Shown: positions 12,635 to 62,088, numbered from the whole stretch's first letter. The stretch is DNA of 63,964 bases, filler included, from Reclinomonas americana ATCC 50394 (GCA_048213135.1; 17 parts of 17 records of this genome joined end to end with filler, not necessarily neighbours in it), one strand, 5' to 3'. Program-made: numbers and translations. The notes: generated from the sequence alone by a model not told the origin.

Positions 12635-12768
12635 GATACCGGCTCAAACGGAGGCGTCAACTCCGAAAGCCGCCAATTCAGTAAGCGCCGGTGCTAAAAG
12701 TGCCGCAAGAGCTCGCTTTTCACGGGCTGGGGAAACAGCAGGCGGTGCAACCGCCGGGAGGGGAGAAC

Positions 12769-14772: not shown

Positions 14773-14852
14773 TTGGTTTCTAAATCAGGGGACGGGAACC
14801 TCGTCCCGTCTTCCGCATTCTTCCGCTGCTCGTCGCATTGCGGAGAAGCGTC

Positions 14853-15678
14853 ATGGTCGCCAAGCCTCAGGACAAGGCCAAGTCATCCGGTCGCCTGCGC
14901 CGGGTCACCATCGACGATCTCACCATCCGCCGCGTCAGGGTCGGCCGCAATTTCGGCTATCGCGACGCTGAGGGCAGCAAGATCGGCGATGAGGAGACGC
15001 TCGCCCGCATCCGTTCGCTGGCGATCCCACCTGCCTATCAGGACGTCCGCATCGCCGCCGATCCGCGGGCCCATCTCCAGGCGGTTGGCCGCGACGAGGC
15101 CGGACGCATCCAGCATCGCTACCATCCCGATTGGGAGAAGGTGCGCGAGCGCCGCAAGCTCAAGCGCCTCGGCCGGCTGATCGATGCGCTGCCGAAGCTG
15201 CGCGAGCGCATCGCCTCCGACCTGAAGGACCGCACGCTCTCGCGCAGGAAAGCGCTAGCCTGCGCCGCCGCGGTCATCGACCGCTGCCATATCCGTGTCG
15301 GCAACGAGGTCTATGCCCGCACCAATGGCAGCCATGGCGCCTCGACCCTGCTCAAGCGCCATGTCGAGGTCAGCGGCAAGCACGTCGGGCTCGCCTTCCG
15401 CGGCAAGGGCGGCAAGGACATAGTCTGCGGCCGAGACGACGCCCCGCTCGCCCGCGCCCTGACGCGTTTGAAGACCCTGCCCGGAAAGCGCCTGTTCCAG
15501 TACCGTGCCGAGGACGGCCCGGTCGCCGCGATCAACGCCGCCGACATCAATCGCTACCTGAAGGAGGCGGCGGGCCTGCCGATCTCCAGCAAGGACCTGC
15601 GCATGCTCGCGGCCAATGCCGCGGCGGCCGAACTGCTGCTCTCAACCGACATCGCCGCCAGCGAGCGCGGCCGCAAGC
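14853..15678 (+). CDS. Bacterial DNA topoisomerase IB, 3' partial
   Basis: LARIRSLAIPPAYQDVRI, HLQAVGRDEAGRIQHRYHPDW, IRVGNEVY, FRGKGG, SKDLR. Confidence 0.93.
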
Positions 15679-15778
15679 NNNNNNNNNNNNNNNNNNNNNN
15701 NNNNNNNNNNNNNNNNNNNNNNTTAATTAATTAANNNNNNNNNNNNNNNNNNNNNNNNNNNNNNNNNNNNNNNNNNNN

Positions 15779-17286: not shown

Positions 17287-17386
17287 NNNNNNNNNNNNNN
17301 NNNNNNNNNNNNNNNNNNNNNNNNNNNNNNTTAATTAATTAANNNNNNNNNNNNNNNNNNNNNNNNNNNNNNNNNNNNNNNNNNNN

Positions 17387-20062: not shown

Positions 20063-20207
20063 NNNNNNNNNNNNNNNNNNNNNNNNNNNNNNNNNNNNNN
20101 NNNNNNTTAATTAATTAANNNNNNNNNNNNNNNNNNNNNNNNNNNNNNNNNNNNNNNNNNNNTGAGCTAATTAGTTTGGACTTCACTGATAGTCTGTTCT
20201 TCGCACA

Positions 20208-22798: not shown

Positions 22799-25700
22799 TG
22801 AGCAAACAAGCAGTTAGTCGTGACGATTCGTGATTTGTGAATGCGCGACGACTCACATCCGGAGAACTTCGTGCACTCTCACGAGCCGTGCCCATGACCG
22901 CAAGAGTTCGGGGCGACAATTTCGGCTGCACGATAGATCGCGCTGTCAACGCTACTGCATGTTTCAGAGCGTGGACTTGGTGCTCGTCATCTGCAAGGTT
23001 CGAGATGTGTTGATGAGTGCGTCCATCTAAACGGTCGACGAACACACAAAAGCCATACCAGACGAAGTATCCGAGGCTACTTCGACAGAATCGATGCTGA
23101 CTTCCACGTGCCACAGCTTCACAACGCGCGAAAGAAGCAATCCGTACACCTTCTCTACGACAATTGCGACAACCCACGCCAGCACCATGATCGGAGGCAT
23201 CATGCGGTCTGCAAACATGTTGAACGATGCTCGAGCCACCAGCTGGACACCATACGAACAAAGAATCACACCACTTGCAAGCGCTGCTGAAGTCAGATAC
23301 CACTGTAGAGTGAGAGTGTGTGTGAGAAAGAGAGAATAAATGTGAGACGAGATGAATTATCCATCGCAGCAAGGTAACCGTCGCCGCTGAAGACGTACCT
23401 GTGACGAGAAGCACAAATGATCGAGCTGCCGAAGCTCAGGCTCAACACGATAGTCAAGTTCGTCGTCGTCGGCACGCCAGCTTGTTGTCCTGGTCGCAAA
23501 GAGGTCCATCTTCAAGCGCAGGTATTCCACCAATGGGTACCGGTAGAGGGTCTCCACCAGATTTAGCACGTTGCATTGCTGCAGTACAGCAGCAAGCCAC
23601 GCAAACACTCCAAACAGGTGGAACCAGATCCAGTCCCCATCCTTGATGAGCAGGTAGTCTTCAACCCGCAGTTGAACGCGGAACAACCACAGCAATGCCT
23701 AAGAAAAAAAAAAAAAAGACACCCATGAGCACATTGTACGCCAAGGAAGAAGCAACGAGCAAGAAGAGATTTGTGATGCGCACCAGAGTTGGTGGAATCA
23801 AGAGCGCGCTGATATTTCGACAGCATATTTTTGAAACCACCTCCGTTGCCTGGCTGATCACCTCGATACGGATGAGGTCTGTTGGACGCGGAGTGAACTT
23901 GTCTCCACGGACATGTCGTCTCCATGCCCACACCATGAGCAATTTGTAGTACGGCCAGTGCCATGCAATCCGACAGATAAGTGGATCGAAAAGCAACCTA
24001 TTGAACAGATCGCCGAGCTCCAGAATGAGCAGGCCCACGATACTTCGCGTGAAACTTCCAGCACCTGCATCGAGAAAATAAAGGTGAGAAGACTCAAGGC
24101 AATAATCATCGATTCATCAACCTGCGCTCTCACCGAGAAGTAGCGCAAACTGGATAACCTGAGCACTGGCGATCAACGGCGTAACATACACGTCTTCTCG
24201 GAGCATCCACCGCAAAATCTTGGCCAGGACAGCTTCGAACAACTTGATCAGAACCACCGTGACGTAGAAGGAGCCAGAGAAGCTGGGAGCATTCGAGAAT
24301 TCGACCAGAAGCAAGAAGACGAACGAGAATGCCACGCAGACAAGCAGCACAAAGCCACGTTTCCACCGCAAAAAGTCAAAAGCATCGTCATCTGCCCCGT
24401 CTTCACCGCTGTCGGATTGCTGGCTGTCAGAGGTTTCCAGTCGCGGGCGACCGACACCAGTAATGGCCCGGTACATAAAGTAGACGCCGAAAGTGAAGAG
24501 CGCGGTACCGAGTCGACCAGTGGACCACCGAGCCAGTCTGAGACAATTAAAAGTGAGTCAAGCAGAGAGAAACAAAAACGACAACACAACGACAACAAAA
24601 ATATCTAGCACGGAACTCAGTCTGCAAGGCGACCAAGTCAGTGGGCGGAACAAAATCGTATACCGCCATGTGCCAAACGAGGAATTGCCAGCGCTGCATG
24701 ACCTGGTAACACAACGCCACAGCTGACGCCGCTCCGAAAATGGCGAGAGAAACGCCAACAAAGTACGACGGTACAACAGTCCGCAAGTACCGATTGAAAC
24801 GATAGCCGAATGCCGATGCTCGTCGCAGTAGCGAACATACAAACCAGATCAACAAGGTAGAGCCGAACACAAATGCAACCACAATGGACAGCAGCGCCAA
24901 GTACACATATGGCGTCTGAGTAAACGTGTCCAGAACGTCAAAATACTGCAGCGGTAACAACTTGATCTGCACAATGTAATCACGAACACCAGTGTTCGTG
25001 TCGTAGTCCTCGAATCTTACAGAGGCACGCATAATGTTCTTCTCAGTCGCAGTCACTTGCGCGTACTCGAAAGAAAACACCACACGTCGCGGCACAAGTC
25101 CGGTCGGCTGTGTATCCACTCGCACAGGCGTCAACAAGTGCTTGGTACCGACGGCGAAATATTCGTCACCGTCGTTCTCCAGCCCAACTGACTCAACAGC
25201 AACGGCAGAGCGAGTAGTATTCGTGGATGAGCCTGCCGTGGAGTTACCCACAAAGTAGACTACCGGGCGCTGACTGACGTAAAATAGGACGTCGCCCACT
25301 TTGCTCCGGAACCAGTTGGCCGCACCGCCGCGCTCCGCCAGCGAAGTCTCCTCAAAACTGACATTTGTATGAGAGAGCACACAAGTCTCCGCCAAATGTT
25401 GCAAGAGGGGTCCACGGTGACACAGCAACAGTACTGGCTGGATCCCGAAGAACGCATCCGGGACCCTCAAAGGCGTCGGTCAGCATCAGGAACGAATCCG
25501 GGCCTCGACACGCCGACACATACGGCAAGAACGGCGACGCATAGGCTTGTCGGTTGCTCCAGAAATCAGAAGATGAAGTCTGGTTCGCACTCGCAACGTC
25601 GCGAACAAACGGGTCGTGAGTGTTCGCACGGTACGCAAGTACGGCAGCACTACCGGCATGCAAATTTTGCGGCAGATTCAGCGAATTAGAATACAGCACC

Positions 25701-28666
25701 GAATAGAACACAGCGCTAGTGCCATATTTCGCTCGACGAGGGTTGGCAACAGAGACATCCATCGTGTTGGCTACTTGTTCTAGATAAACTGAGTCCAAGT
25801 ACCGACCGTGAACAAAATCGATGCAAACATGCACGTAAACATTATCCCTGCGCAAAAAGGCACACACAAACGACTAGATTAGAACACTGCTGATTCTAAT
25901 AGCCTACAAGCTGGAAGTAAAAATAAACGCAACTCAATGGCGTGCACATTCAACGCCACAGTGGTGTTCTTGGGAACAGAGGTGTCGTTAAACCAGGCCG
26001 GCAATGCAGTCCGCGCGTAACCTTCCGGAACTTCGACAAGATCGACACCCGAATACACCGAGAGCACGAACTGATCGTAGTAGTGTACAAGCGTGAGGTC
26101 TGACCAGTTGAAGCGCATCGTCGCCACCGAATTCGCAGACAGGTGGAACATGGAACAATTCTGAGCAACATCAACGACCGTCGCAGATGCGTCCCTCGTG
26201 AGAACAAGAGCAGATGGCGCGACACGAGACAGCCGGTTGTCATTCTCACGCAAAACTTCCCAGTCTTTCCCACATTGCTCAAAGTACTGCGCTCCCTCTA
26301 CAGTGGTCGTACCAAATGGACATCTCGTGTGCGGGTGGCTGGAGTTCGTGCCTGCCGGGCAGTAGTACCCTTCGGGGCACAAAAAGAAGTCCTGGATGCT
26401 CTCACGAGTGCCAGCAGCGCAGTAGAAACCTGGCTTGCATAACTGCCCGTACTGGGTAGCAGGCGTTGTGCCCTGACCGCATACGTAACCAGCAGGACAC
26501 AACGTGGCAAACTGCGTCAGCGATGAGGTCCCGGGACCGCACACGAAACCCTCTTGGCACGCAGACTGCCCAACGTAGTCGAGCAGGCCTTCGTCCTTAC
26601 ACACAATCCCTGAGGGGCACGGCGTACAGTCGGTTGGAGAGCCGAGCGGGGGATCTTCGGCGCTTGACATCGGAGCGTATGTACCACTTGGACAACTTCG
26701 ACAAGTAATCAACGTTTCGTTGAGCTCTCGATATGTTCCAGGTGGACAACGCACAGGCACAACTGTTCCTGCTGTCGGACAGAAGTATCCTGGAGGGCAC
26801 GGATCGCACACGGCAACGCCAGTCGAGTTACTATAAGTACCCGGCGGGCACGGACGCGGAGCATCGTTACGCACACCAGGGCAATAGTGCCCAGGTGGGG
26901 ACGGAATCGGATCCGTCATGTTGGCTAAACAGTAGAATCCTGGAGGGCACGGTCCAGATCCTCCAACCTTATCAGCACCGGTGTCACAATATGTACCAGC
27001 TCGACACACTTGTGGAGCGAGACTGTCAGTGGGATCGACAAATGGAGTGGCGACACCACGAAGACAGTAAGTTCTGGGTGGACAAGGAATTGGATACTGG
27101 TAACTGCCACTGGTGGGATACGACGCCGCAACAGGTGCCGACATAGAACTCGTCACACCAGCAAGACAGTAATGTCCTTCTAAACAGCGTTTCACCGGAA
27201 GAGCTAACCCAGGCGCATCACAAATAAAGCCAACTGGACATATTTGTGGAGCAGTCATACCATTCGCTGGACAAATCTGCCCCGCAAGACAGGGCTGACA
27301 CTCAACTTGACCAGGCGCGTTGTTGAATGTACCGGGAAGGCACAAAGTGTACACCCGATTACCATATCCAGGGCAGAAAGCACCAGGAGGACAGGTCACA
27401 AAGTTGGTCCCGTTGACGCCCGGACAATAAGCACCAGGAGAACACAAGCCTTGACCTTGCGGAGTGGCCGCCCCTGAAGTGCAGTTGAAGCCAGAGGCGC
27501 AAGGAATAGGATAACTAAAGTTATTGGGCCCAGCACTCGCCAGTGAAACGTTCGTGGTGACACCAAAAACACAGTAGTGGGATTCAGGACACGGAAGCGG
27601 TCGATGAGGTTCGGCATAAGCAGTCGTCGAAGAGGTCTTTGTGCCAGCCAAACAGTAGGAGCCTGGAGGACACTGATTGCCTGCTGTGTACAGACCGAGT
27701 TCCTCGCACACTTTTCCAGCTGGACAGCTACTCGGAGCTGTCATACCCCAGTCAGGACAGAAGAATCCAGGAGCGCAAGCAACACAGGAAGCGGAGCCAG
27801 ATGAATTCTGGTAGAACCCAGGCGGACACTTGCGAGGTACCGGCATTCCGTACGACGGACACCTTGAACCCGCAGGGCACGGTCTTTCGATTTGCGTACC
27901 ACAGTAGCTTCCAGGTGGACAAAGCTTCAGCTGCACAGCCGTTTCGTTGTGAGAATAGTACCGGCTGTTGACAGACACTTCGAGGTCAATCTGCGCTCCA
28001 TCAATGGCAATATCCAACGACGGCGATACACACTCTATCAGCTGGGATGACCGAGTAATGCCGCTGACAACGTGCGTTCCAAAGCGGCAATATGACGAGA
28101 CAGAAGTGGTAAATCCGGCACCGTTAACAGACACCGTCAAGCCGCCCTGGGTCGGTAACGTCGGATGGGAAACACTCTGGACACTGGGCTCACTGACAAC
28201 CGTAAATGTGACTGCGTTGCTGTAATGGAACCCATTCAGCGAGACAACAATGTCGAAGTCACCAACAGCAAGCGCTGGAGTCGTGCAACGAAGTTCAGCA
28301 GAACTAACAAACGTCGCAGGAACAACAACCAGTCCCACAAGGCATCGCAAGTACGGAGTATTAAAGAAACCAGACCCAACCACCGTAACCTCCGTACCAC
28401 CGCTGGCGCCAACAACAGTAGGAGACACAGATGTTAGCACTACATCGTCCACGTACCGGAAACCGTACCGTGAAATATGATGCTGTTGGTCATTGTTGGT
28501 GACAGCAACACCATAGAAGAGATTGTCTTCTGCTGGAACAGTGCACTCGCCAACCCGCCGGCCGATAATGCCCATGGTGACCACACCATTCACAAACGGC
28601 CCAAATCGACAACGCAGCTGCTCAACAACATGGTACCCAGACGACCAAACGCGGACACTATAGCCG
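22799..28666 (-). CDS. IPT/TIG + GCC2/GCC3 Cys-rich repeat multi-pass membrane protein, paralog B (spliced, 5' partial)
   Basis: Two or more IPT domains and a CPxGxYC array (ORF 25879-28593); SPFLPYVSACRG exon; TM exons; LDYRVEPELRQLDHLCFSSQ homologous to paralog A. Confidence 0.85.
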
Positions 28667-28766
28667 NNNNNNNNNNNNNNNNNNNNNNNNNNNNNNNNNN
28701 NNNNNNNNNNTTAATTAATTAANNNNNNNNNNNNNNNNNNNNNNNNNNNNNNNNNNNNNNNNNNNN

Positions 28767-30711: not shown

Positions 30712-33048
30712 CTACATCGCCATCACCTCCCTCTCAAAGTGCCGGTGCCGCGCCACCGCCTCCATAAAAGCCTCCACCCACGCGTCGACCTCCGCGGCCT
30801 CGCCCAGCAGCAGACCCGGATCACTCACGTCCTCCTCCACCACCCCAATGCCGGCCTCGACGAGCAGGCGCCGCGAGGAGCCGAGCACCAGCAGCGTCTT
30901 GCAGTGCCGATACTGGTCTTGTACAAATTCTACCGCTTGTCCGCTCGACATGAGTGCGTCGACACCGGCGCCGCCGTCCGGCAGCACGCACGCGTCAAAG
31001 AGCACCGCCGGTGAGTTCTCCAGGGTGGCGGCCGCCTTGAGAGGTGAGGAGAGGCTGTCGGTGGTGCGTACGGTGCCGAGACGAGGTGCGACGATCACGG
31101 GAATGGCGCCCATGGTCAGCAGCGCCTCGTACAGGCGCACCACGGGCCTGCCGATGACTCCGTGCGCGACCAGCAGCGCAATGCGGCGAGTGCGAATGCC
31201 CACGGCTGCGGAGCTCGGTCGGTGCGCCATCAGCGACAGTGCCGGCGATGCCTCCACTTCCGGCCGCCTCGGCGCCACCACCGAGGCCGGCGGCAGCGGC
31301 GCAGGGTACTCCTCGAGGTCGAGGTCTGCGGCCAGTTGTGCGGCGAGCGACTCTGACACGTTGCGCAGCAGGGCCACCACGCGGGCGCGCACTGCCGCGA
31401 CCGTGACCTTGCTCAGCTCGAAGCGGAACGCCGCCGCAATGTGCGCCTGCTCCACCGCCGTCTGGCTGTCGTAAAAGAGGCGCGCCTGCGTGTAGTGGTC
31501 GGCAAACTTCTCCGGCTTGCCGCGCAGCTTGCGCGTGTCGTCGCTGCCACTGGCCGCATCGAGCGTGCGCGGGTACGTCATAAAGCCGGGACCGCCGCGA
31601 CTGCCGCCGGCCTGGAACGGGCAGCCGCCGGCCAGTGAGTTCGGCTCGTAGGCCACGCGCCCGCGGTTGAGGGTCTGGCGGTGGAAGCCGTCGCGGTTGT
31701 TGTTGTGCACTTGCGCCAGCGGTCGGTTGATGGGAATCTCGTGAAAGTTGGGGCCGCCGAGACGCGTCAGCTGTGTGTCGGTGTAGGAGAAGAGGCGACC
31801 GGTCAGCAGCGGGTCCTCGGTAAAGTCGAGACCGGGAATGATGTGGGCGGCACAAAAGGCCACCTGTTCGGTCTCGCCGAAAAAGGAGTCGGGGTTGCGG
31901 TTGAGCACGAGGCGGCCGACCGGGTGCACCGGCACCAGCTCCTCCGGCACCACCTTGGTGGCGTCGAGCACGTCAAAGCTGAAGGCGGCGGCCTGCTCCT
32001 CGGTGAACAGCTGCACGCCGAGTTCATACTCTGGAAACTCGCCAGCCTCAATGGCCTCCCACAAATCGCGCCGATGAAAGTCAGGATCGGCGCCGGCAAT
32101 CTTCAGTGCCTCGTTCCACACCAGCGAGTGCGTGCCGAGTTTCGGCGTCCAGTGGAACTTGACCAGCGTCGCCTCACCCTGCGCATTGACCAGGCGGAAG
32201 GTGTGCACGCCAAAGCCCTGCATCATGCGGTAGCTGCGCGGGATGGCCCGATCCGACATGATCCACATGAGCATGTGGGCCGACTCGGGACTCAGCGACA
32301 CAAAGTCCCAAAACGTGTCGTGCGCCGTCTGCGCCTGTGGCATGGCGTGATGCTGCTCCGGTTTGGCGGCGTGGATGACGTCGGGGAATTTGATGGCGTC
32401 CTGGATGAAGAAGACGGGAATGTTGTTGCCGACCAGATCCCACACGCCGTCCTCGGTGTAGAACTTGGTGGCGAAGCCGCGCACGTCGCGCACCGTGTCC
32501 GCCGAGCCACGCTCGCCAATCGCCGTCGAGAAGCGCACAAACACGGGCGTACGCTTGCCCTTGGCCACAAACGGGACGGCACGGGTGTAGCGCACCATCG
32601 AGTCGTCGTAGCACTCGAAAAAGCCATGCGCCGCCGAGCCACGCGCATGCACCACGCGCTCCGGAATGCGCTCATGATCAAAGTGCGTCAGCTTCTCGCG
32701 CACGATGAAATCCTCCAGTAGTCCCGGGCCACGCAGGCCGGCGGTGAGGGTGTTTTGATTGTCGGCCACCGGCACGCCCTGGTTGGTGGTGATGAAGCGG
32801 TTGGTGGGGTCCGCCCGCACGCTGTCCAGCGGTGCAATGGTGGCGGCGTTGAGACCGGGAGTGGCGGCACCGCGCGGACCCGTCTTGTCGGTCACCGACA
32901 CGGCCTCGGTGAGGGTGCTGGCGGTGGCGGTGCTGTCGCCGGTGGCGTGGGGGCCGACTTGGGGGGTGAGTGCGTCGTCGAGGCCGGCGTCGTGTTGTTT
33001 GAGCGGGTTGTGTGGGATGGAAGAGGCGAGGGCGTTGGTGGAGGCCAT
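30712..33048 (-). CDS. katE: Large-subunit (clade 2, HPII-type) catalase with C-terminal DJ-1-like domain, intronless
   Basis: [20 protein letters not shown] (catalytic His), [15 protein letters not shown] (proximal Tyr), C-terminal [20 protein letters not shown]; 778 aa from ATG 33048. Confidence 0.95.
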
Positions 33049-34127
33049 TTGGGAGCGCAGGGATGAGGGGAGGGGGGTGGCTGAAAGGGAAAGGGAGGGG
33101 TGAAAGGGGGAAAGGGGGAAGGGTGAGGGAAAAAAGAGGAAAAAAATAATGGTGTGCAAGGAAGGAGGGCCAGACAGGAATCTGTGGAGAGCGTGGCTTG
33201 ACACCACCTATGAAAGGAGATGATGCAACAACTGGGTTGGTGCAACAGAGAGGGCAGAGAGACGACAACACAGTGCAGCATTGCAGAGAGACGAGAAAGG
33301 AAAACGTGTCAGATAAACGCCGTGTATGAGGACGAGCGAATAATAGTGTGATCAAGTGCGAGTGAGGAGTCAACTGGGATGCGGCTGGAATCTGAGGAAG
33401 AAGAGAGAAACGTGACAACAAGAGAAGAAGAGCCTGAGCGAAGGGAGCATAATATGAAGAAGCGCGTGGAAGACGAGTGAATTGCAGCAAAGACGGAGTG
33501 CGTCGTGATGAGAACAAGCTGAGTGGTCGACAAGTTTCTGCAACACAGGCCGAGAGCGCGAGAGAGGCACAATGCCGACACCGGAAACAACAACAGCAGA
33601 CGAAGGACGGAGTGCAAGCAGGAAAATTCTCCACAAGTGAAAAAGAGTGAAAACAAGAGCAAGGAGACAACAAAAGAAGAGAGAGAGAGAGAGAGAAGAA
33701 AAAAAAAGGGACAGAGGGAGACTGAGATCCGTCACGCAACTTTTCTGCTCACGTGAAAACATGGTGACGAGGACGGAGGATGATGCTCTCTGCTCCGACA
33801 GTGGAATGCAACTCGGAGGAATCAATCATCGATCATCACATGCAGCGTGTGTGTGTGCTTGAGGATCGTGCAATGGATGGAAGGTAGGCTGTCGAGACGA
33901 CGTATGGGGGAAGGGGAGGAGGAGCGATCAACCATGTTGACAACTCGAGGGATTGTTTGTGCGAGTGGTGGGCATTTGTGTGTGTCAGTGTGCGAGAGGG
34001 GAACGCGCGCAACGCAAGAGAACAGTTCACAGGCGCAGCAACTGCACTCTACTCTTTGCATGCGGGCACGTACGTGGGAGGGACACAGAGCAACGACGGA
34101 AGGACAGACTTCAAAGCACTAAGTCGT

Positions 34128-35180
34128 TTACCACCCCGCCGCCCGCCTTCCAATCACCACCGCCTCCTCCAGCACAAAGCACCGCAGCACAACGTCGACA
34201 AGAACCCAGTCGCGATCATCCTCTTCTTCCTCGCCCAACATCTCGTTGACGGCCAGCACGGCCAGTCGCGCCGCCGCAATCTCATGCCCGGCAAGCCCAC
34301 GCGCCGTGGACCGCACTCGCACGCGCCTGTCACCCCCACCGGCACTCACCAAGTGCTGCCCATCGCGTGTGACGGCAATGGACCACACCTCGCCAGATTG
34401 CTCTTCGAATCGGCACACTTCTTTCCCCGTCGCCAGCCACCACATGCGCACTGCTATCTTGTCGACGTCGCCAACCCCGGTCACCACGCACTCACCGTCG
34501 CTGGTGACGGCGACCGATGGAACCCCCCACGTGTGCCCGTCCACCCGTCGCACTTGCTCGCCACTCGCCAGCGACCACACTCGCACAGTCTTGTCGAAGC
34601 CTCCACTCACCACGTACTGACCGTCGGGGGTCGTGGCGACCGATTGCACCCTCTCGGAGTGCCCCTGCAGTTGTCGTATTTCCTCTCCGCTGGCCAGCGC
34701 CCACACTCGCAGTGTCTTGTCGCGACCGCCGCTGACAGTGTGCTGGCCGTCGGCGGTGACGGCGACACACGACACGCCCCGCGTGTGCCCCTTCAATCGT
34801 CGCATTTCCTCGCCACTCGCCAGCGACCACACTCGCACCGTCTTGTCTCCACTGCCACTAACAATGTGGCGACTGTCGCCGGTGACGGCGACAGCATGCA
34901 CCCAGTCTGTGTGACCCACCAGCAGTCGCACTTCTTCCCCACTTGTCGCCAGTGACCACACGCGCACTGTTGCGTCTTGACCGCCACTGACAATGTGCTG
35001 GCCGTCGGCGGTGACGGCGAGCGATTCAACCCCTCCAGTGTGCCCCTCGAAGCAGCGCACTTGTGCTCCGCTGGCGAGGGACCACACTCGCACCGTCATG
35101 TCCTCGCTCCCACTCACCACGTGTCGGCCGTCGGGAGTGACAGCGACAGAGTTCACTGCGAGCGCGTGACCCTCGAAGGC
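34128..35180 (-). CDS. 7xWD40 protein with conserved ~55-aa C-terminal tail (last exon)
   Basis: Seven GH..VAVTxDG..SG..D.TVRVW repeats, then LAGHEIAAARLAVLAVNEML..DRDWVLVDVVLRCFVLEE..GW*; splice acceptor at 35181. Confidence 0.9.
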   Translation of the reverse strand, partial: AFEGHALAVNSVAVTPDGRHVVSGSEDMTVRVWSLASGAQVRCFEGHTGGVESLAVTADGQHIVSGGQDATVRVWSLATSGEEVRLLVGHTDWVHAVAVTGDSRHIVSGSGDKTVRVWSLASGEEMRRLKGHTRGVSCVAVTADGQHTVSGGRDKTLRVWALASGEEIRQLQGHSERVQSVATTPDGQYVVSGGFDKTVRVWSLASGEQVRRVDGHTWGVPSVAVTSDGECVVTGVGDVDKIAVRMWWLATGKEVCRFEEQSGEVWSIAVTRDGQHLVSAGGGDRRVRVRSTARGLAGHEIAAARLAVLAVNEMLGEEEEDDRDWVLVDVVLRCFVLEEAVVIGRRAAGW

Positions 35181-35458
35181 CTGCGAGGAGGAGGAATGAA
35201 CCACGCCATGCGCAATGAGGAGCAGGCGGGCACACACAGTTGGAGATCTCACGCATCCGAGACACGCACAGAGGGAGGGAGGGAGGGAGGGAGGGAGAGG
35301 GAGAGGGAGAGGGAGAGGGAGAGAGAGGAGGGAGAGAGAGAGGAGGAGGGANNNNNNNNNNNNNNNNNNNNNNNNNNNNNNNNNNNNNNNNNNNNTTAAT
35401 TAATTAANNNNNNNNNNNNNNNNNNNNNNNNNNNNNNNNNNNNNNNNNNNNACGTAGC

Positions 35459-35459
<1 letters not shown>

Positions 35460-35526
<67 letters not shown>

Positions 35527-35541
35527 CTCTCTCTCTCTCTC
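35460..35541. repeat. (CA)n/(CT)n microsatellite
   Basis: Seen directly at the contig edge. Confidence 0.95.
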
Positions 35542-35882
35542 AATCACTCACTCACTCGCTTGCTTGTGTGTGCAAGTAAGAAGCAGGAGAGGCCGTTGGA
35601 CTCGTCGCTTGTATGCATCGCTTACTTCTCTCTGTGCGTTGACCTCGCCCTCTCTCTCACACACACACATACTTGCACACACAAGCAAAGCAAGAGGCCA
35701 TTTGGACTCAATCGCTAGCTTCTGTGTTGATCTCACTCTCTCTCTCTCTCACACACACACATAGGCGACTAACATGCTCCCACGAAACCACACCTTTGTC
35801 GCCATGGCTCTCCTTTGTGGGAGAAGTGATTCATCCGACGGACAAGTACAACTGATCTCATGACGCTTAGTTCTTCACTGCT

Positions 35883-37200
35883 TCACCACCCCGCCGACCG
35901 CCTTTCAATCACCTCCGCCTCCTCCAGCACGAAGCACCGCAGCACGACATCGACGAGGATCCAGTCGCGATCATCATCTTCTTCTTCAGCAAGCAGCTCG
36001 TTGACGGCCAGCACGGCCAGTCGCGCCGCCACAATCTCATGCCCGGCAAGTCCACGCGGCGTGGACCACACACGCACGGTGGTGTCACGACCCCCGGCAC
36101 TCACAACGTGCTGACTGTCGGGCGTGATCGCAACAGAGTGCACCCAAAACGTGTGCCCTTCCATCCGTCGCACCTCCTCGCCCCCACTCGCCAGCGACCA
36201 CATACGCACTGTGTGGTCCACCGATCCACTGACAATGTACTGTCCATTGGTAGCGACGGCGACTGACAACACCCATGCCGTGTGCCCCTCTAACCGTTGC
36301 ACGACCTTTCCACCGCTCGCCAGCGACCACACTCGAATGGTGTTGTCGGCACTGCCACTCACCACTGTTACGTGCTTCGCACACTCCCCCCCTTACATGC
36401 CATTTATACCCCCCTTATATATGCTTTTCATAGCTTCTGCTCCTTGACCCTTTGTTCTTGACCCTCGGGTACGTGACCCTTAACCCGTTACCCTTGACCC
36501 TTGCAATGGGAGACCTCATATAAGGCAATCAAGGGGGGGAGTGTGCGAAGCCTGTGACACCACGTACTGACCATCAGGAGTGACGGCGACAGACTCCACC
36601 GAGTCCGCGTGCCCCTCCAGCCAGCGCACCAGCTTGCCACTCGCCAGGGACCACACTCGCAGAAAAAGGTCCTGGCTACCGCTGAACCACGTGATGCCCG
36701 TCGGGAGTGACGGCGACAGACGTCACCTCGTTCGTGTGCCCCACCAGTTGTCGCACCTGTTCTCCACTCGCCAGCGACCACACTCGCACAGTCTTGTCTC
36801 CACCTCCGCTCACAATGAGGCGACCATCGGGGGTGACGGCAACAGACCGCACCCGCCCAGTGTGGCCCTCCAGTCGTCGCACTTGCTCGCGAGTCGCAAA
36901 GGACCACACTCGCACAGTCTTGTCGTTACTCCCGCTCACTATGTGCTCACCATCGGGGGTGACGGCGACAGACCGCACCCATGCAGTGTGTCCGTGCAGG
37001 CGATTCACTTCCTTGCCGCTCGCCAGAGACCACACGCGCACCGTCATGTCGTCACTGGCACTCACCGCGTGCTGGCCGTCGGGAGTGACGGCGACAGACC
37101 ACACCCTTCCAGCGTGTCCCCTCAAGACCTGCAATGCGGGGAGGGTGTGAGAGAGGTGATTCTCCTATTGTTTCGCGCTGTGCTCTGCTGTCTGCGTCAG

Positions 37201-37235
<35 letters not shown>

Positions 37236-37335
37236 CACACGCACGCACACTAACGCTCACACATACGCACTCGCGCACACAAGCACACAACACCCGCAAA
37301 CACGTGCACACCTTTGTCGTTCTGCTGTTCTCCAT
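35883..37335 (-). pseudogene. 7xWD40 + same tail paralog, interrupted by a MITE and a +1 indel
   Basis: Exon 1 MENSRTTK (37335-37312), phase-0 intron, exon 2 from 37128; extra base near 36685; removing the insert and one CCAC restores TPDGQYVVSGSADNTIRVW. Confidence 0.85.
36366..36559. mobile_element. 194-bp non-autonomous TIR element (MITE), Ginger/TDD-like termini
   Basis: Left TGTTACGTGCTTCGCACACTCCCCCCCTT versus reverse complement of right end TGTCACAGGCTTCGCACACTCCCCCCCTT; CCAC duplicated at 36362-36365 and 36560-36563. Confidence 0.9.
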
Positions 37336-37642
37336 CAGTCTCTGCGGCGTAGAGCGGTGTGACTTTCTGCGCAGTACAAGTGTGATTGCGATCGTGATTG
37401 CATGAACTTTGATCGGATCGGGACGAGGGTGTTCAGATGCGTCCCGACGTCGCCGTGATGATGATAATCGAACGAGAAGAGTTGTACACCATCGGTGACA
37501 GGGACACTAGTACTGGAGGAAGTGGAACTCGAGATGCCTGGGGCACGGCGAATGTCCTGTCGTATCGCGATCCGTCTGACAACAAAAGTGACCGAACTCT
37601 GGCGTGAGAACAACACAGAATCGAACAACAAATCAGCGAGCG

Positions 37643-38282
37643 ATGACAACGGTGAGCAACGTGCGACGCACATTGTGAGTGTGTATGTGCGTGATACTCT
37701 CAGCACAACTCATCTTGTCGCGCAGTTTCGAGTGCGCGTGAGCGCTGCGCATGATGTCAAGGAACTGACGATAGAGGCGTTGGGCCTGACAACCGCTTCC
37801 ACTCTCGCCGACCTTCTCGCCGACGCCACACACAGACTGCGTGAAAAAAGTGGTGACGCCGCAATGGAGATTGTGGGCGTGGAGAAGCCGCTGCCATTTG
37901 ACATAGAGCGGCTGAGCACTGTTCCACTCGGAGTCTTGGGCATCTCGGGCAACACAGACCTCGTTGTGCGCGTCGCTCTCTCGGCTGGCGCAGTTGCCTC
38001 CAGGTATGTCTTCCACCTCTGCCCCTGGTCACTCATGTACATGTGCCTGCGATGTCTCATTGATCATGGCACCCAAGATCGTGGCCACTGTCGACGGGTG
38101 TCACAGAACAATGGTGAGTGTCCAGGTCTTGATATGTGTTTGCTGTTGTTGCTTTTCACTCTGTTAAGTGAGTGTTTGTGCTTGCGTGTGCGGGCAAGTG
38201 AGGGAGAATCGAATGGGTACGCTGCGAATGCGCAAGTGAACAGCGGAAGATTGAGACTTAACCTTGGAGAGTGAAGAGAGTG

Positions 38283-38320
<38 letters not shown>

Positions 38321-41300
38321 GAGAGTGTGTGGCCACGTGGGAGAGTGGGAATGTCAGATCTAGAAACCCTTGAGTGATCTGTGTGAGTTCGCAGAGAGTG
38401 TATGTACCACGCTTGCTTTTACCGCAGCGCTGCACTCAACACTCGACTATGTGACACAGGTCGATCAACTCGCAGCGCTTCAACATGGCCTTTGAGGTGG
38501 TGGAGGAGGCCGTGCGCCTGCGCTGTCGACGCGCACTGGCGCAGTTCAGTCGCGATCATGCCGACTTTGACGTGCGGGCATGGGTGCCAAGTTTCACGCC
38601 TGCCGGTATGAATGTGGTGGCGGTGAAGGCGTGGCGTGAACGACATGCTCCGCACCGATCTGGTCGAGTTGCGTTGTTCAAGGAGAAGCAGCTTGCGGTG
38701 TCGGCTTGGCGTGCTGCGTTTGACGCCGATCCGTCGTCCGACCCTTCGTGTGACGGGCTCGACACGACGGCGCTCACGTCAATCATGCTGTATGGTGGAT
38801 TTGTTCAAGATGGCGACCGCAAGCTGCTGATTGATGATGGCGATGAACGGAAGGCGGTGGAGGAGCTGCACTATATCAGGAACAAGCTTAGACACGATGA
38901 GCTGCCATTGACAGTTGTCACAGTGCAGCAGTACCTTGGTGACGGAGGTGTGTTTCTCTCCATTCTCTCACGATTGCAGCTGACGGTTAATAAGCGTGCT
39001 CGATTCAGTGCTCGCATCAGTGAGGCACGTCACGCTCGATTCATCGTGGACACATTCGAGGAGCGGCTTCATCGGCTGGCTGTGCGTGAGCTCTCGTTCT
39101 ATCAGCACGATGAGAGTGTGCGCAAGGACATGCAGATGTATGTGCCGCTGCTGTGTTCCCGGAAACGAGATGCCAGAAGAGACCTAGCGGATCTTTTGAA
39201 GGAAGTGGATGCTTTTCTCTCCGACGCTAACATCGCACACCGTGTGCTGGTGATATTTGGCAACAGCGGAGCTGGTAAGACCACCACCATGTCGGTGCTG
39301 GCTGAGCGAGCATGGCGACAGTGGCAGACGAGAGAGAGCAGACGAGTGCCAGTGCGTGCGCCTCTTGGTGCCCTGCGCAACGCTGATGAGCGATTGCTGG
39401 AGGAATCGCTGACGCGTCTGTCTCCGGAAATGAGCGCAAAGGGCGATGCCCGACGACTGAAAGAGGTACCACTGCTTTTGTTGCTAGATGGGTATGACGA
39501 GTTGTACCGTGGTGTGAATCTGTTTGTCAAGAACCAGCTGGATGTATGCCGCGATGTGAAGGTGATTATCACCTGCCGAGGTGATTATGCACTTACGGCA
39601 TTGGGTGGTGTGACACAGTATCGACGGTTGTTTGCGCCAGTTGACTCCAACGGTCAGCTACGTATGGAGCAGCTAATGGAGCGACACATTGCACCATTCG
39701 ACGAATCGCAAGTGAAGGAGTACTTTGGTCGGCTAGTTCAGTTGCATGTCGGTGAAGGTGACGACTGTGTTCCATGGACAACAGCCGACGAATACATGAT
39801 GTCTATGCGACAAGTACGTGGACTGATTGCACTTGTGTCCAATCCATTCCTGTTGACGGTGGCGGCTCGTGTGTTACCACAGTTGGTGGCGAGTGGTGTG
39901 CAACGACCGACTCGGTGTGATGTGTTTGAACGATTCATTCGACAGTGGATTGTAAGGGAGCAGGAGCGACAAGCACGAGTCGTCGGTGATACACGTGACC
40001 AACGCATCCCACGCGAGGGTGTATGTGTAGCTTTCTGTGAGGGACTGGCGCGGTTGATGCATGAGAGGAATGTGGTGCGTGTGTCCGTGGCAGAGAGTCT
40101 GTCTGGTGAGCGTGGAGAGGTGGACATTACTGAATTTGGCGGTGCGCCACTCGCCTCGTCACGAGTGGAAGAGGGACCGTTTGACAAGTTCCTCGGGCAC
40201 AAGAACCAACATGTGCGAGTGTGCTGTCCGATTGTGCGACGGTATGGGACGACGCAGTGGGGATTTGTGCATCTGTCGTTGCTGGAGCACTGTGTGGCAC
40301 GACATGTGTTTGCATGGGAGACGTGGGATGAGGAGAGGAGATTGACACTGCAAGATGTGCAGCAACATGTGCTCGCGGTGCGACTGCTGAATGATCGACC
40401 TTCGTTGGTGGAGCAGATGGCTGAGGTGGTGCGACGGTCTCCTGCGTTGCAGGTGAGACTGTGGGAGGCTATTGAGATGTCACGCGAGGTGGATGAGGAG
40501 CGAGTGGTGACGGCGGCAGCGAATGCGGCGACGGTGTTGTGTGTGGCACAAGTGTCGTTCAGTGGGCGCGATCTGTCGGGTGTGCGAGTGAGGGGTGCGG
40601 ATTTGAGGGATGCGGTGATGCACCGGACGGTGTGGAGGGGAGCGGATTTGCGGGGGGTGAATTTGTGCTCGGCGTATGCGAAGGAGGCAGATTTCACAGG
40701 AGCGGATGTGATGGATGTGAAGTGGCCGAGGAAGCCAATGGTGGGACACACTGGCTTGGTGTGGGCTGTCACTGTCACTCCTGATGGTCAGCACATTGTC
40801 AGCGGTGGTTATGATAGAACAGTAAGAGTGTGGTCCGTGATGAGTGGTGAGGAAGTGCAACGGTTGGAGAACCACGAGGACTGGGTGCTGTCGGTTGCGG
40901 TCACTCCAGACGGTCAGCACATCGTAAGTGGGAGCGAGGATAAAACCGTGCGCCTGTGGTCAGTGGCGAGTGGGGAAGAGGTACGACGACTGATGGGACA
41001 CACTGACGCTGTACGAACCGTAGTTGTGACTCGCGACGGCCAGCTCATTGTGAGTGGCAGTGGGGACAAGACAGTGCGAGTGTGGTCGGTGGCAAGTGGT
41101 GACGAGTTACGACGGTTGGACGGCCACACGGAGTGGGTGCGTTCCGTCACTGTTACTCCGAATGGGCAGCACATAGTTAGCGGCAGCGGTGACAAGACGG
41201 TTCGAATTTGGTCTCTGGCGAGTGGAGATGAGGTGCGACGATTTGAGGGACACACTAAACCAGTGTCATCTGTTGCCGTCACTCCTGATGGTCACTATAT

Positions 41301-42336
41301 TGTCAGTGGGAGTTGGGACAAGACTGTACGAGTGTGGTCCGTGACGAGTGGCGAAGAGGTGCGACGGTTAGAAGGTCACAGCGACTGGGTGCGTTCTGTT
41401 GCCATCACTCCCGATGGCCAGCACATTGTTAGTGGTAGTAGAGATAAAACTGTTCGAGTTTGGTCTCTCTCGACTGGAGAAGAAATGCGTCGGTTGAAGG
41501 GACACACTGACCGAGTGTCGTCCGTTGTCGTCATTCCCGACGGTCAGCACGTTGCAAGTGGGAGCTGGGATAAGTCGGTTCGAGTGTGGTCACTTGCGAG
41601 TGGAGAGGAAGTGCGGCGGTTGGAGGGGCATGCTGATGAGGTGCGGTCTGTTGCCATCACACCCGATGGTCAGAATGTGGTGAGCGGTAGTGTTGACACG
41701 ACAGTGCGAGTGTGGTCTGTGGCAAGCGGAGAAGAAGTGCGACGACTTGAAGGACATGTTGGCCCAGTGCAGTCCATCGCCGTCACTCCAGATGGTCAAC
41801 ACATCGTGAGCGGCAGTGGCGACGCGACTGTCCGAGTGTGGTCCTTGGCGAGTGGTGAGGAAGTGCGACGGCTGCAGGGACACACTGGCGCTGTGCGGCA
41901 CTTGGTCGTCACTCCCGATGGCCAGTATATCGTGAGCGGGAGTGGAGACAAAACTGTGCGGGTGTGGTCACTGGCGAATGGTGAAGAAGTTCAACGATTA
42001 GAAGGACACACCAATGTGGTGTCGTCCGTCGCAGTCACTCCTGATGGTCGACATATTGTAAGTGGCAGTGCTGACCAGACAGTGCGAGTGTGGTCTGTGG
42101 CGAGTGGTCAAGAGGTACGACATGGAAGTTTGGACGAACTCAGCCATGCATATGGCGGCCTGTCTCCGTCTGTGTCGGCGCATGCGATCGCGAGTTGCGC
42201 GAATTTGATTCCTATTCCGTTCGGAAGCGCTGTTCTCTTGAGTAGTCGTGCTGGGTTGCACGAGCGCATATTAGGTTCGTTCCTCCCGGAGTTTGGCGAC
42301 GCTGTTGACGTCCATCAGCGACACCGGTACAGGTGA
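37643..42336 (+). CDS. NLR-like STAND protein: ubiquitin-like - HEPN - NACHT - pentapeptide repeat - 11xWD40
   Basis: Phase-compatible exons 37643-37651, 37726-38003 and 38460-42336; RNKLRH at 38878-38895; Walker A GNSGAGKT at 39259; Walker B LLLLLDGYDE; IITCR; NPFLL; FVHLS; FSGRDLSGVRVRGADLRDA; 11 WD40 repeats of 126 bp at 40744-42120. Confidence 0.88.
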
Positions 42337-42810
42337 CTGCGATAGAACAGCTTGTCAGTGACGGTGACCGTGACGCTGGCTATTGGAGTCGAATATTAGC
42401 TTGCATGCAAACAAAAACTGATGAAGGGATGTATATTCTATATACATCATACCCGCTGCGAGTCTCTTCCCAGCACATCACATGTTCATTGTGACAAGCG
42501 GTCCACTCTGCAACGTGCTCACGATGAGAAGGCTGGAAAGTACCTACGCCTTGCTCAAGCCGTTCAGGAGCGTACTGGCAAGCGAGTAGTGTTCGTACCG
42601 TTGGTCTTTGGCACTGGTGGCATTGTCTCGACACTGACGGCCAATGGTCTGGCCGATTTGGTGCACAAGCATTCTACCAGCCAGCGACGCAGTGATGATG
42701 ACACAGAGCGCCTTCTGCGCAGGTGCTGTGCGTCTGTCGCCCGACACGATCATGTCATTTGGGCGGCACACGTGGCTGCCTGTGTTAGCGTCACCACTGC
42801 ACGGCAGTAA
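42130..42810 (+). mobile_element. Degenerate 3' relic of an RLE-type non-LTR retrotransposon
   Basis: AHDEKAGKYLRLAQ..FVPLVFGTGG fits the K..KY / F.P.v.e..G motif of restriction-like endonuclease domains; HAIASC may be a Zn-knuckle remnant; left boundary approximate. Confidence 0.55.
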
Positions 42811-43267
42811 CCGCTGACACTGGCTCTGCTTTCACGCAACCAGCATGTCTTGCACGTTCTTCCCCTCCACCGCCATCACTGTACATAATGACAGGTGTGT
42901 GTGTGTGTGCTCGAAGTGAGCAGAGACTGAATAATAATCTTTCGCTGATTTTTCTTTTCTTGCGCTTGTGTGTTTGTGCAGATGCTCCGGAGAGCGCTGC
43001 AACGTCTGCTGTGCGGCGCAGGCACAACATGAGAGCGGCAGTGACAACTTCCGTGAGCAACAACAACAACACCATCACCAACAACAACCTCTCATGGTAC
43101 GAAAGAACGAGCAAACTCTCAAATGCATCTCAGNNNNNNNNNNNNNNNNNNNNNNNNNNNNNNNNNNNNNNNNNNNNTTAATTAATTAANNNNNNNNNNN
43201 NNNNNNNNNNNNNNNNNNNNNNNNNNNNNNNNNAACAGCTTTCAATTACTGCGCCTCCAAATCGCCT

Positions 43268-53554: not shown

Positions 53555-56500
53555 TTATGCCGGCCTCTCGTGCAGTCGCCGACAAACTTCCAGCCACTCC
53601 ACAGTATTCACGGTGCTTGGATCCTCCTCACCAAGTACCGCTCGCCGACCATCCACACACTCCACCAGCAGTGCCTCTGCCTCGGACCATCGTTGCTGTT
53701 TAATGAGCAGAAGGCCGAAGTTGTACATCGTACGCAACATATCTTCGTGTTTGTTGCCCAACACTTCTCGCTCTCCCCTCAAGCACTTACGATACAAATC
53801 AGCAGCTTCCGCCAGTGATTCTGGAGTGTCTTGTTGTGCGAGAGCACCAGCAAGATTGTTCATCGACATAAGAGTGTCTGGATGTCGATCCCCCAGCGAC
53901 GCTCGCTTCAACTGCAAGCAATCTCGGTTCAGTTGAATTACTTCCTCTAGACGACTATCATCTCGGATACATGCGGCAAAATTGCTCATAGACGTCAACG
54001 TGTCTGGATGATCAGCACCAAGAACTAAACACCGCATCTCCCAACACCATTGATAAACAATCTCAGCATTGGCAGTTTTTTTGTGATCATCGTAGAACCA
54101 CGCCTGCAAATTCAGCGTCAACAGCGAGTCTGGATGACTCTCTCCCAACGTCGCACACTGCCGCCCATGACACTGCATCAGAAGCGGTAAGATGCCTGAA
54201 CAGTGACCAAACCACATCAAGCAGCGAAATGCGTCAATCCTATCCAGCACAGTCATCTCGCCACTGTCATCCCTCTCCCACTCGTCACACAGAAGCCACG
54301 CCTGCTGCCACGCTGCGTTTCGCTTATCCAACTGACGAAGCATCTCAAATAACCATGCACGACACTTGACCACCACAATACAAAGCAGTCGTCGCACTGA
54401 ACTCGTCCGATTATCCCCATCTCCATGCTCTCCACACTCTGTCATACGACGTACCAGTGACATGGCCACTGACGTGTTGAATCCAGCAGAAGGCAGTTCT
54501 CTACTAACCCACAACGCAGCAATCCACTCCACCGCCCCACACTGCACCAGAAGCCCATTCACACCCACGGCATCTCTCGCCCACATGCCGTCATCCTCGC
54601 CCAACCGTCGCCACACAGCGTGAAGCACGCCGAGCAAGTCGCAAGACACCAACAGCACAATATAGTTGTCATTCCAGTCAACGCCACTCAGCATAGAACA
54701 CGCGAGTCGCACCAGCAGTCGCTGCATCCGTGACACGACATCCCCCCACCGTCCCACAATCCACCCAGCAATCTCATCGTGCACTCGATACTCCACCACC
54801 ATATCGCTCTCCCTCACATGCTCACCACAAAGCACACGAGCCACACTGTCCATGCTGCCACTGGCACCCACCGTCACCAGATTCGATATACACAGACCCT
54901 CCAGCACATCCTCCACCTTGTCTTCACCACCACCAGCCACCAACTCATCACGCCGAGCACGCACTCGCTGCTCATCTTCCACACCCATCTCGTCAAACTG
55001 CAGTTTCTCACCCACTACCTCGGGCACACGCCGTCGCCTCTCCTGTGCCAGCTCATGCAATCGCAGTCGACGCACACACCATCCCAACTCCACCAATCGA
55101 CCAGCCGCCTCCTCATCTTGATCAACAGCAGCCTCCTCATCTTCATCACCACCAACCACAGCCACCGTAAAATCGGGAATCACTCGCAACACACCCATCG
55201 CCACTCGTGCAAGTGCCACTGTCACTGGCAAGCCGAGTTCCTTGCATGCCGTAATTAGAACCAACAGTCGACGCGCAGCTGGTGTCTGCGACATCACATT
55301 GCGTTCCAGCAGCCGAGACAGTGCATCGCCACCGATTCCACTCAGCACCTCCTCCAGCCGCGCCCCTACCAGCTGTGCTGGCGATTGCGACAGCAACCAG
55401 CTGCAAGACGAAGAAGAGAGAAAAGAGTGAGTCTTCTCATGCGCACCACTCCCCCACGCACTCAAAGCACTCACCCAACACACGCACTCACTCGCAGTGC
55501 ACTTTTCTCCTCCTGTCCACTCTCCAGCGCCTCCACAATCCGTCGTCGCACATCTCCCGACACCTTGTGAAGGAGTCGCTCCTCCACCAGCTGCACAATG
55601 TCCTCGTTCTCCACGCTCTCCACTCGCACACACTCCACCTCCGCCTCGTGCATCATCGAGTCACGAATCTCATCCGCCACTTGTCCATATCGACTCGTCA
55701 CCACCACAATAGGTGCCACAATTCCGCCTGCACAAAGACACACAATGATACACAGCAAGTCAGGAACCAACATCAAAACAAGAATGACGATTCTCAATCT
55801 CGTGACACAACGCACCCTCATCAGCACATTGAATAACATTCCGCACTTGCTCCGCCGATCCCACATTGTCCAACACAATCACTCCACTCGATGCATGCAT
55901 CAGCTGGCGCAGGAGACGACGTGCTGGCTCCACCTCGCCACTCGCCAGCAGCGCATCCACCTTACCGGCCATTCTTCGTCCCTCCTCTTCTTCCACTCGC
56001 ATCTGTGCCGTAACAAAGGCACGCAGACACTCGCCCACAGCACTCTCCGCCTGTAGCATGGGGCAAGGAGAGAGGGGGAGAGTCAGAATGCCAACAGAAT
56101 GATGAAGCATCATGAAAGACAACATGCTTGCTCCTCTGCACACCTTCACATGCTCCCTCGCATCACCTACATGGCCACGCATTTCCACCGACACGGCAGA
56201 TCCCTTCCATCGACGAGTCGCCAACAACTCGGTCACCAGCAGCTCGGCCAGGAATGACTTGCCAGTGCCACCATCACCCGTTAGCACCACCATGATCGGA
56301 TTATGTGCTGTGCAAGATATCATCACCACCAACAGAAAACACGATAAGGACACATGAATGTAGAGAAGGAAGCAGGTGGAGAGTGAGAAGGAACAACCAA
56401 CCTTCCACAGCATCCACAATGCGCGTGGCGAGCGAGGACGCCAGTGCACGTCGACTCGGGAAGCGGAATGTGGTCACTGGATTGACGGTGCGGGCGATGA

Positions 56501-61987: not shown

Positions 61988-62088
61988 NNNNNNNNNNNNN
62001 NNNNNNNNNNNNNNNNNNNNNNNNNNNNNNNTTAATTAATTAANNNNNNNNNNNNNNNNNNNNNNNNNNNNNNNNNNNNNNNNNNNNG

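Follow-up and report, generated by a model that had tools for sequence, protein, structure and literature searches.

In animals, DZIP3/hRUL138 HEPN domains are fused to NACHT, CARD, DEATH and LRR modules, and the family has undergone lineage-specific expansion in Nematostella, oyster and Capsaspora (Anantharaman et al. 2013, PMC3710099, Table 1 and section 16). The same survey records CXorf38-type HEPN domains together with NACHT, and N-terminal HEPN domains on bacterial NTPases of the STAND (signal transduction ATPases with numerous domains) class (PMC3710099). In pearl oyster, more than 50 NACHT proteins carry an N-terminal DZIP3-HEPN. Among these, Rx4H is the commonest motif, and N usually follows the R; NACHT proteins with tails of LRR, TPR or WD40 repeats occur (PMC9646362). 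Corals also have many N-terminal DZIP3-like HEPN domains, on nucleotide-binding leucine-rich-repeat receptors (NLRs; PMC10236652). For bacteria, HEPN is listed among the enzymatic effectors of NACHT proteins (bioRxiv 10.1101/2022.07.19.500537, supplementary discussion). HEPN and RNase have no occurrence in the main text of a survey of fungal NLR effector domains (PMC9815663). Within the available parts of the three accounts of animal HEPN-NACHT proteins (PMC3710099, PMC9646362, PMC10236652), no RNase test is mentioned. Our literature search, with most subscription journals outside its coverage, found no published HEPN-NACHT protein from a protist. Here, we describe a gene of Reclinomonas americana ATCC 50394 (GCA_048213135.1), located in a DNA stretch of 63,964 bases (hereafter, the window). 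At this locus, a microbial eukaryote encodes a protein of STAND/NLR-like type, the N-terminal domain of which is fairly likely, as judged from sequence comparison, to be a very diverged HEPN homologue of the Swt1/DZIP3 type.

On balance we favour, without great confidence, a protein in which a diverged HEPN domain with an intact RNxxxH motif is followed by NACHT, a helical region, a short pentapeptide beta-helix and eleven WD40 blades, and may be preceded by the product of a short additional exon. Note that an architecture of HEPN, NACHT and repeats is already in print for molluscs, cnidarians and bacteria. The novelty of this DNA was overrated in an initial annotation. The present architecture is a variant of a type described in animals and bacteria, and opens no new category.

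A NACHT-pentapeptide-WD40 gene

The window consists of 17 contigs split by 16 artificial linkers (44 N, TTAATTAATTAA, 44 N), which lie at 5247-5346, 6563-6662 and so on up to 61988-62087. The contigs are unplaced, and gene neighbourhood across linkers is meaningless. The contig with the NLR-like gene spans 35452-43133 and true gene context is limited to that stretch. Here, frame 1 is open between 38455 and 42336 (1293 codons). Translation from its first ATG (38485) yields 1283 amino acids (P0001). The features of this open reading frame (ORF) are as follows.

38485..42336, plus strand: main ORF, first ATG to stop, 1283 amino acids (P0001)
38485..39009, plus strand: N-terminal domain, residues 1-175, probable diverged Swt1/DZIP3-type HEPN (Atlas, hhalign, MAFFT)
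38758..38787, plus strand: LDTTALTSIM, residues 92-101; in alignment, D93 and L97 fall on the D...L conserved across Swt1-like HEPN domains
38878..38895, plus strand: RNKLRH, residues 132-137, an Rx4H motif (R132, H137) in which N133 follows the R
39241..39726, plus strand: NACHT NTPase, residues 253-414 (Pfam and Walker motifs)
39259-39285, plus strand: Walker A, GNSGAGKTT, residues 259-267 (K265)
39472-39501, plus strand: Walker B, LLLLLDGYDE, residues 330-339
39727..40545, plus strand: post-NACHT region, residues 415-687, common to relatives and without a Pfam family
40546..40746, plus strand: pentapeptide-repeat stretch of about 11 units, between NACHT and WD40 (Pfam, PDB)
40744..42129, plus strand: WD40 repeats, 11 of exactly 42 amino acids, residues 754-1215 (Pfam, Tandem Repeats Finder)
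42130..42336, plus strand: non-repeat C-terminal tail of 68 amino acids, plus stop codon

The gene is real, well formed and NLR-like. The NACHT domain scores 35.3 bits, against a Pfam cut-off of 26.7, and contains both a GxxxxGK[ST] Walker A and an hhhhDGxDE Walker B sequence. The Pentapeptide family matches residues 718-743 with 34.1 bits (cut-off 20.2), and solved pentapeptide-repeat proteins in the PDB match residues 688-754, with expectation (E) values down to 4.9e-10. WD40 is matched in 11 stretches, for a total of 423.3 bits (E 2.1e-131), and Tandem Repeats Finder reports a period of 126 bases with 10.3 copies. The initial annotation had proposed this NACHT-pentapeptide-WD40 arrangement, the Walker motifs and the 11 WD40 repeats of exact period, and in all three respects it was right. 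The strings LDTTALTSIM and RNKLRH that it quoted are also present, and the end that it gave, 42336, is the stop codon. Its start, 37643, is wrong, being an ATG in another frame, where translation stops after 11 codons.

The WD40 units have a mean identity of 69% in protein and 70% in DNA, with variation concentrated at unit positions 3-5, 7 and 23. Identity between repeats is 0.78, 0.84 and 0.47 at codon positions 1, 2 and 3, respectively. Since third positions are only 47% identical, compared with 78-84% at the other two, we read the repeats as old and held by purifying selection, and not as products of concerted evolution.

The N-terminal domain and the HEPN superfamily

The HEPN motif has been defined as Rx4-6H, with N, D or H after the R, located where helix 3 ends, with an acidic residue upstream (PMC3710099, sections 6-7). 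RNKLRH, which lies within AVEELHYIRNKLRHDE (residues 124-139, positions 38854-38901), has the spacing of Rx4-6H and a polar residue after R, as in that definition (PMC3710099). We counted such motifs in all 516 ORFs of the window with at least 60 amino acids. The strict form, RN...H, occurs 5 times in 64,101 residues, or about 0.02 times per 250 amino acids. The loose form, R[NDH]x3-5H, occurs 0.48 times per 250 amino acids. Among these ORFs, the combination of D.[TS].L with RN...H is unique to the N-terminal domain.

An ESM Atlas feature search with residues 60-185 returned, as its top match, a DZIP3-like HEPN cluster with a score of 0.91 and 170 shared features. Twelve of the listed matches at scores of at least 0.9 fell in the DZIP3-like HEPN set; note that a score of 0.9 is, by the tool's own account, also attained by 4-10% of shuffled proteins. 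Further matches were to DUF4559/DZIP3 clusters and to a bacterial HEPN_Swt1 cluster (0.87). With residues 1-210, the clusters ranked first were DZIP3, Swt1 and DZIP3 (0.80, 0.77 and 0.77).

For profile comparisons, 40 bacterial PF18731 domains were collected. Their sources were 12 of 401 and 27 of 401 genomes, sampled from two phyla. Removal of six near-identical rows left a set of 34. No PF18738 domain turned up in the 401 bacterial genomes. In hhalign, residues 1-185 aligned to 12 of these domains with a P-value of 0.017 and a score of 19.1, and none of 86 control fragments scored as high. Against all 40 domains, with mact 0.05, the probability was 45.6%, the P-value 2.1e-4 and the score 28.3. 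This alignment places query residues 1-164 on template positions 1-118. Not one of 142 controls reached its score (best control, 23.7). A MAFFT alignment with the 34 domains was collinear for the N-terminal domain. All 35 rows share L97 and H137, at least 90% of them have R132, and W50, D93, R122 and E126-L127 occupy family-conserved columns. D93 falls on the conserved acidic column of the family, in an alignment that is weakly supported.

In domain libraries, every family listed matched in a HEPN catalytic region, at noise level. Among 24,736 Pfam models, HEPN_Swt1 (PF18731) was the sole family listed for N-terminal fragments (7 of 11 fragments, E 0.099-0.14), with residues 120-144 placed on profile positions 73-98 of 115. 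Pfam listed no family for the 252-amino-acid N-terminal piece, and hmmscan never listed PF18738 for any fragment. PADLOC listed Cas13b alone, for 2 of 3 fragments (E 0.037-0.044), as did NCBIfam for 1 of 3 (E 0.18). Both sets of Cas13b matches map close to the models' C-terminal end, where the second HEPN motif of Cas13b would lie.

Turning to structures, a profile of the bacterial PF18731 domains (A1) gave weak PDB matches to Csm6 (0.15) and HepS (0.38). By sequence, no solved Swt1-like template was found in the PDB. Unexpectedly, the A1 profile also matched residues 232-342 of the fungal SAGA subunit Spt7 (E 0.0036), with almost the full profile covered and the catalytic H missing. This region of Spt7 could be an inactive HEPN-like region, or the match could be due to chance.

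Several observations weigh against the HEPN assignment. They would fit a different possibility: residues 1-190 may form a lineage-specific helical effector or adaptor unrelated to HEPN, in which RNKLRH and the D...L pair are coincidental, while the NACHT-WD40 STAND switch remains. No search for HEPN reached a curated or conventional threshold. The Pfam scores for HEPN_Swt1 are 12.9-13.4 bits, compared with a cut-off of 27.5. The library E-values (0.04-0.18) are at noise level, with unrelated fragments matching unrelated families equally well. With default settings and the 34-domain set, hhalign gave a probability of just 8.2% (P 0.0041), for residues 82-140 only. The C-terminal DD..R..D pattern of the Swt1 family is not kept in the MAFFT alignment. 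Custom hidden Markov models (HMMs), built from 12 and 40 Swt1-like domains, scored 5.6 and 9.3 bits on a 250-amino-acid fragment. The whole ORF ranked 6th, and then 2nd, of the 516 window ORFs, which is noise level. A junk ORF without the motif (23835-24140), a chance match, scored higher, at 10.6 bits. The custom HMM scores were rejected as evidence for HEPN. Single-sequence AlphaFold2 models had a mean predicted local distance difference test (pLDDT) score of 43.9 for residues 1-210, and 40.4 for residues 60-185. Such models provide no usable fold, and fold-search matches would therefore be meaningless. In both low-confidence models, a helix does cover residues 118-136 and terminates in the motif. 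The domain also appears to be an orphan. There were no relatives of residues 1-250 among 3378 word-sharing candidates (proteins of 705-2246 amino acids). For the N-terminal domain itself, HMMER run in full over 1.84 billion representatives (E up to 0.001) gave none, and there were likewise none among 411 candidates of 115-368 amino acids (E up to 10), in the PDB (E up to 10) or elsewhere in the window. Neither the 1.84 billion representatives nor an index of 5.8 billion clusters yielded a paralogue or orthologue. Finally, the sequence signals all lean on one short helix and the motif, and hence are not independent. Against an unrelated helical domain, four different methods converge on one superfamily among thousands, collinearity of the alignment extends over about 160 residues and takes in several landmark columns, no control matched the hhalign score, and the strict motif is rare. 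We consider such a domain less likely than HEPN, though of appreciable probability.

Two further possibilities concern what the domain, or the gene, does. A true HEPN homologue might serve in RNA binding, sensing or homotypic interaction, and not as a suicide RNase. Roles of this sort were proposed by Anantharaman et al. for inactive Swt1 and nematode HEPN copies, and non-catalytic members exist in HEPN families (PMC3710099); loss of the Swt1-family C-terminal motif would be in line with this. In the present domain, however, R132, N133 and H137 are intact, with D93 on the acidic column, and intact motifs are taken as predictive of activity (PMC3710099). We regard a non-RNase role as improbable. 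Alternatively, the locus may not be a working eukaryotic gene at all, being a decaying duplicate, an assembly artefact among unplaced contigs or a contaminant. The make-up of the window lends this some weight: 17 unplaced contigs are joined, at least one is Bosea-like bacterial DNA with 95% protein identity, and the neighbouring WD40 gene on the contig is broken. Yet the 1293 codons are open with a consistent codon signature throughout, the third positions of the repeats bear the mark of purifying selection, the microsatellites and the candidate consensus GT-AG intron are eukaryote-like, and the best relatives are eukaryotic. We regard a non-working locus as very improbable. The reading that we prefer, a HEPN head on an NLR-like protein, is also that of the initial annotation. 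Of the readings available for the N-terminal domain, a HEPN head is the best, although all profile evidence is below threshold. Likewise, hhalign comparison with Swt1-like HEPN domains gave P-values of 2e-4 to 4e-3, but probabilities of only 8-46%.

Relatives, upstream exon and genomic setting

Relatives were sought with residues 1-720, against 8000 scored candidates (E up to 0.001). The search found 28, with 21-31% identity in the best BLASTP alignment. Most are Mortierellaceae proteins with an ARM_5-NACHT-pentapeptide(-WD40) arrangement, checked on P0005, P0006 and P0025. According to precomputed Pfam lists, four EukProt 'tig' relatives have TIR_2, and two of these also have SAM. Two bacterial-looking relatives from metagenomes combine NACHT with FGE-sulfatase and are weak matches (E 7e-5 and 5e-4). 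None of the 28 covers query residues 1-141, and the BLAST alignments start at residues 142-376. In an IQ-TREE phylogeny, the query groups with five non-fungal rows (P0003 and the four TIR-headed proteins) with a Shimodaira-Hasegawa-like approximate likelihood ratio of 96. The tree contains the query and 24 of the 28 relatives, four with fewer than 350 aligned residues having been dropped, and placement is unsure given long branches and composition warnings. A NACHT-pentapeptide-WD40 portion common to proteins with ARM_5, TIR and SAM heads gives a picture of a swappable effector position. Judging by these domain arrangements, the head position is evidently swappable.

Upstream of the main ORF, frame 1 is additionally open from 37468 to 38274. 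This region includes two candidate features.

37534..38003, plus strand: candidate upstream coding exon, frame 1, with ATGs at 37534 and 37552 (codon signature); the 'UBL' of the initial annotation
38004..38459, plus strand: candidate GT-AG intron of 456 nucleotides, frame-keeping, with a (GA)25 microsatellite at 38267-38315 (splice-site consensus)

Over 37663-38001, GC content at codon positions 1, 2 and 3 of frame 1 is 0.68, 0.46 and 0.62. The corresponding ranges for three domain segments of the main ORF are 0.67-0.68, 0.41-0.50 and 0.53-0.62. Codon log-odds for the same interval are +0.18 per codon in frame 1, and -0.44 and -0.40 in the other frames. The coding signature ends at a consensus donor, CAG|GTATGT (38004), and an acceptor, ACACAG|G (38459/38460), restores the frame. 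An upstream coding exon, joined by an in-frame GT-AG intron, is therefore plausible on these sequence features. The initial annotation had placed a ubiquitin-like (beta-grasp) domain here. Sequence searches gave this candidate no support, as the exon product has no ubiquitin-family profile or PDB match. Briefly, Pfam listed no ubiquitin-type family for the upstream ORF or its pieces, the chance matches being SpuA_C (0.085) and YbaB (0.15), and the PDB search returned a single match, to a phosphate uptake regulator (E 0.95).

The contig looks eukaryotic because it has microsatellites ((AC)32, (CT)15 and (GA)25, from Tandem Repeats Finder), a consensus GT-AG intron candidate and eukaryotic best protein relatives. 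Head-to-head with the NLR-like gene is a WD40-only gene (35883-37164, minus strand), which is spread over three frames. A 1-base frameshift lies near 36690, about 190 bases in which GGGTCAAGG units recur are inserted at about 36385-36553, and the gene ends in an acidic tail. It is probably a decaying paralogue, or else low-quality sequence. On the neighbouring contig, an intact-looking WD40 ORF (34128-35351, minus strand) has an acidic C-terminal tail like that of the broken gene, and loses its 5' end where the contig stops, immediately past a microsatellite. The DNA identity between this ORF and the broken gene is about 75%; hence, the two would be paralogues and not haplotype copies.

Other contigs hold genes of various kinds. 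An ORF for UxuA (D-mannonate dehydratase; 10675-12363, minus strand) has protein identity of up to 95% to Bosea sp. genomes, and in a search with window positions 10483-12848, relatives were encoded by 528 of 546 candidate stretches. A bacterial-type topoisomerase IB is found at 14784-15734. The GC-rich contigs with these two genes resemble the DNA of an alphaproteobacterium, present as an associate or a contaminant. A catalase of the large-subunit type, with a DJ-1-like domain at its C terminus (30712-33207, minus strand), is nearest to bacterial HPII/KatE structures (E 2e-223), and shares its contig with a eukaryote-style WD40 gene. TPR_10/TPR_12 repeats of the NPHP3 type occur in ORF 53555-55660 (minus strand), a candidate sensor tail for a further gene of the STAND type. 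Two long ORFs, 17335-20118 (plus strand) and 25879-28710 (minus strand), combine IPT/TIG with ephrin-receptor-like cysteine-rich repeats and look like eukaryotic surface proteins. Rfam had zero matches in the whole window.

Proposed mechanism and comparison with known systems

The R and H of the HEPN motif form a metal-independent RNase site (PMC3710099). We propose a mechanism on the basis of this published view, together with the effector-NTPase-sensor logic of NLRs. The WD40 propeller, or propellers, would bind a trigger, and the NACHT domain would then oligomerise in a nucleoside triphosphate-dependent manner. Oligomerisation would place HEPN domains next to one another, and their paired Rx4H sites could then form a metal-independent RNase. 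The resulting RNA cleavage might arrest or kill the cell, or degrade the RNA of an invader. This sequence of events, from oligomerisation to HEPN pairing and cutting of RNA, is a reasonable inference by analogy.

A broader picture can be offered more tentatively. The NACHT-pentapeptide-WD40 chassis may circulate among distant eukaryotes (Mortierellaceae, the EukProt 'tig' organism and the present protist) with interchangeable heads for death or defence (ARM-like, TIR, SAM or orphan HEPN), the HEPN version being an RNase L-like immune switch that cleaves RNA when triggered by oligomerisation. We think it doubtful that all of this holds. If it did, RNase-armed NLRs would be older, and more widespread, than the published animal and bacterial cases. 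RNase-armed NACHT receptors are so far known solely from domain annotation. Were the head of the present protein an active HEPN RNase, their known range would grow beyond animals and bacteria to take in a free-living microbial eukaryote. The compact, nearly intron-free gene would then lend itself to asking biochemically, for the first time, whether a HEPN nuclease is turned on by oligomerisation of NACHT. The chassis held in common with TIR- and ARM-headed relatives, for its part, illustrates effector swapping in eukaryotic STAND proteins.

The closest described proteins are the DZIP3-HEPN-NACHT receptors of molluscs and cnidarians (PF18738 and PF05729). Like these, the present protein has an N-terminal HEPN candidate in whose Rx4H site N follows the R, with NACHT in the middle and a repeat sensor at the C terminus. 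Moreover, the nearest Atlas clusters of its N-terminal domain belong to the DZIP3 family. Unlike them, the domain has no PF18738 score in hmmscan and no sequence relatives, sits on a NACHT-pentapeptide-WD40 chassis and comes from a microbial eukaryote. Bacterial Swt1-like HEPN domains (PF18731), mostly N-terminal to large ATPase proteins, are collinear with it at 12-22% identity. Both have the N-terminal helix, W, D...L(L), R..V.EL and RN..(A)H as landmarks. The differences are that the bacterial domains occur in open frames of 187-1223 amino acids without NACHT and have the DD..R..D pattern, absent here, and that the similarity is below family cut-offs. Note that bacterial Swt1-like HEPN domains are described as fused to an AAA+ ATPase in restriction-modification contexts (PMC3710099).

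Other systems share the chassis or the logic, with different heads. The ARM_5-headed proteins of Mortierellaceae, and the TIR/SAM-headed proteins of EukProt, have the same NACHT-pentapeptide-WD40 chassis and differ in their heads; the ARM-like solenoid heads are the 'NLR_Helical' domain of PMC9815663. In bNACHT and Avs STAND proteins, the effector-NTPase-sensor logic is the same. These systems are prokaryotic, and 2 of the 28 relatives of the present protein look bacterial. The fungal HNWD NLRs (HET-E, HET-D and HET-R) also combine NACHT with 42-amino-acid WD40 repeats that resemble one another overall and vary at a few surface positions. Their head is a HET domain, whereas the Pfam search listed no HET domain in the present protein. 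In Podospora, HNWD repeats are from more than 80% to 100% identical, through concerted evolution (PMC12222747, Introduction). Repeat identity in the present protein is 69-70%, with third codon positions at 47%, and so falls outside the HNWD range. RNase L and Ire1, of the KEN-type HEPN family, offer a working analogy only. In these proteins, ligand-driven self-association switches on an R/H-dependent HEPN RNase (PMC3710099, section 6), as we suppose for the present receptor. They differ in having a circularly permuted HEPN family, and ankyrin or kinase sensors, and in not being STAND NTPases.

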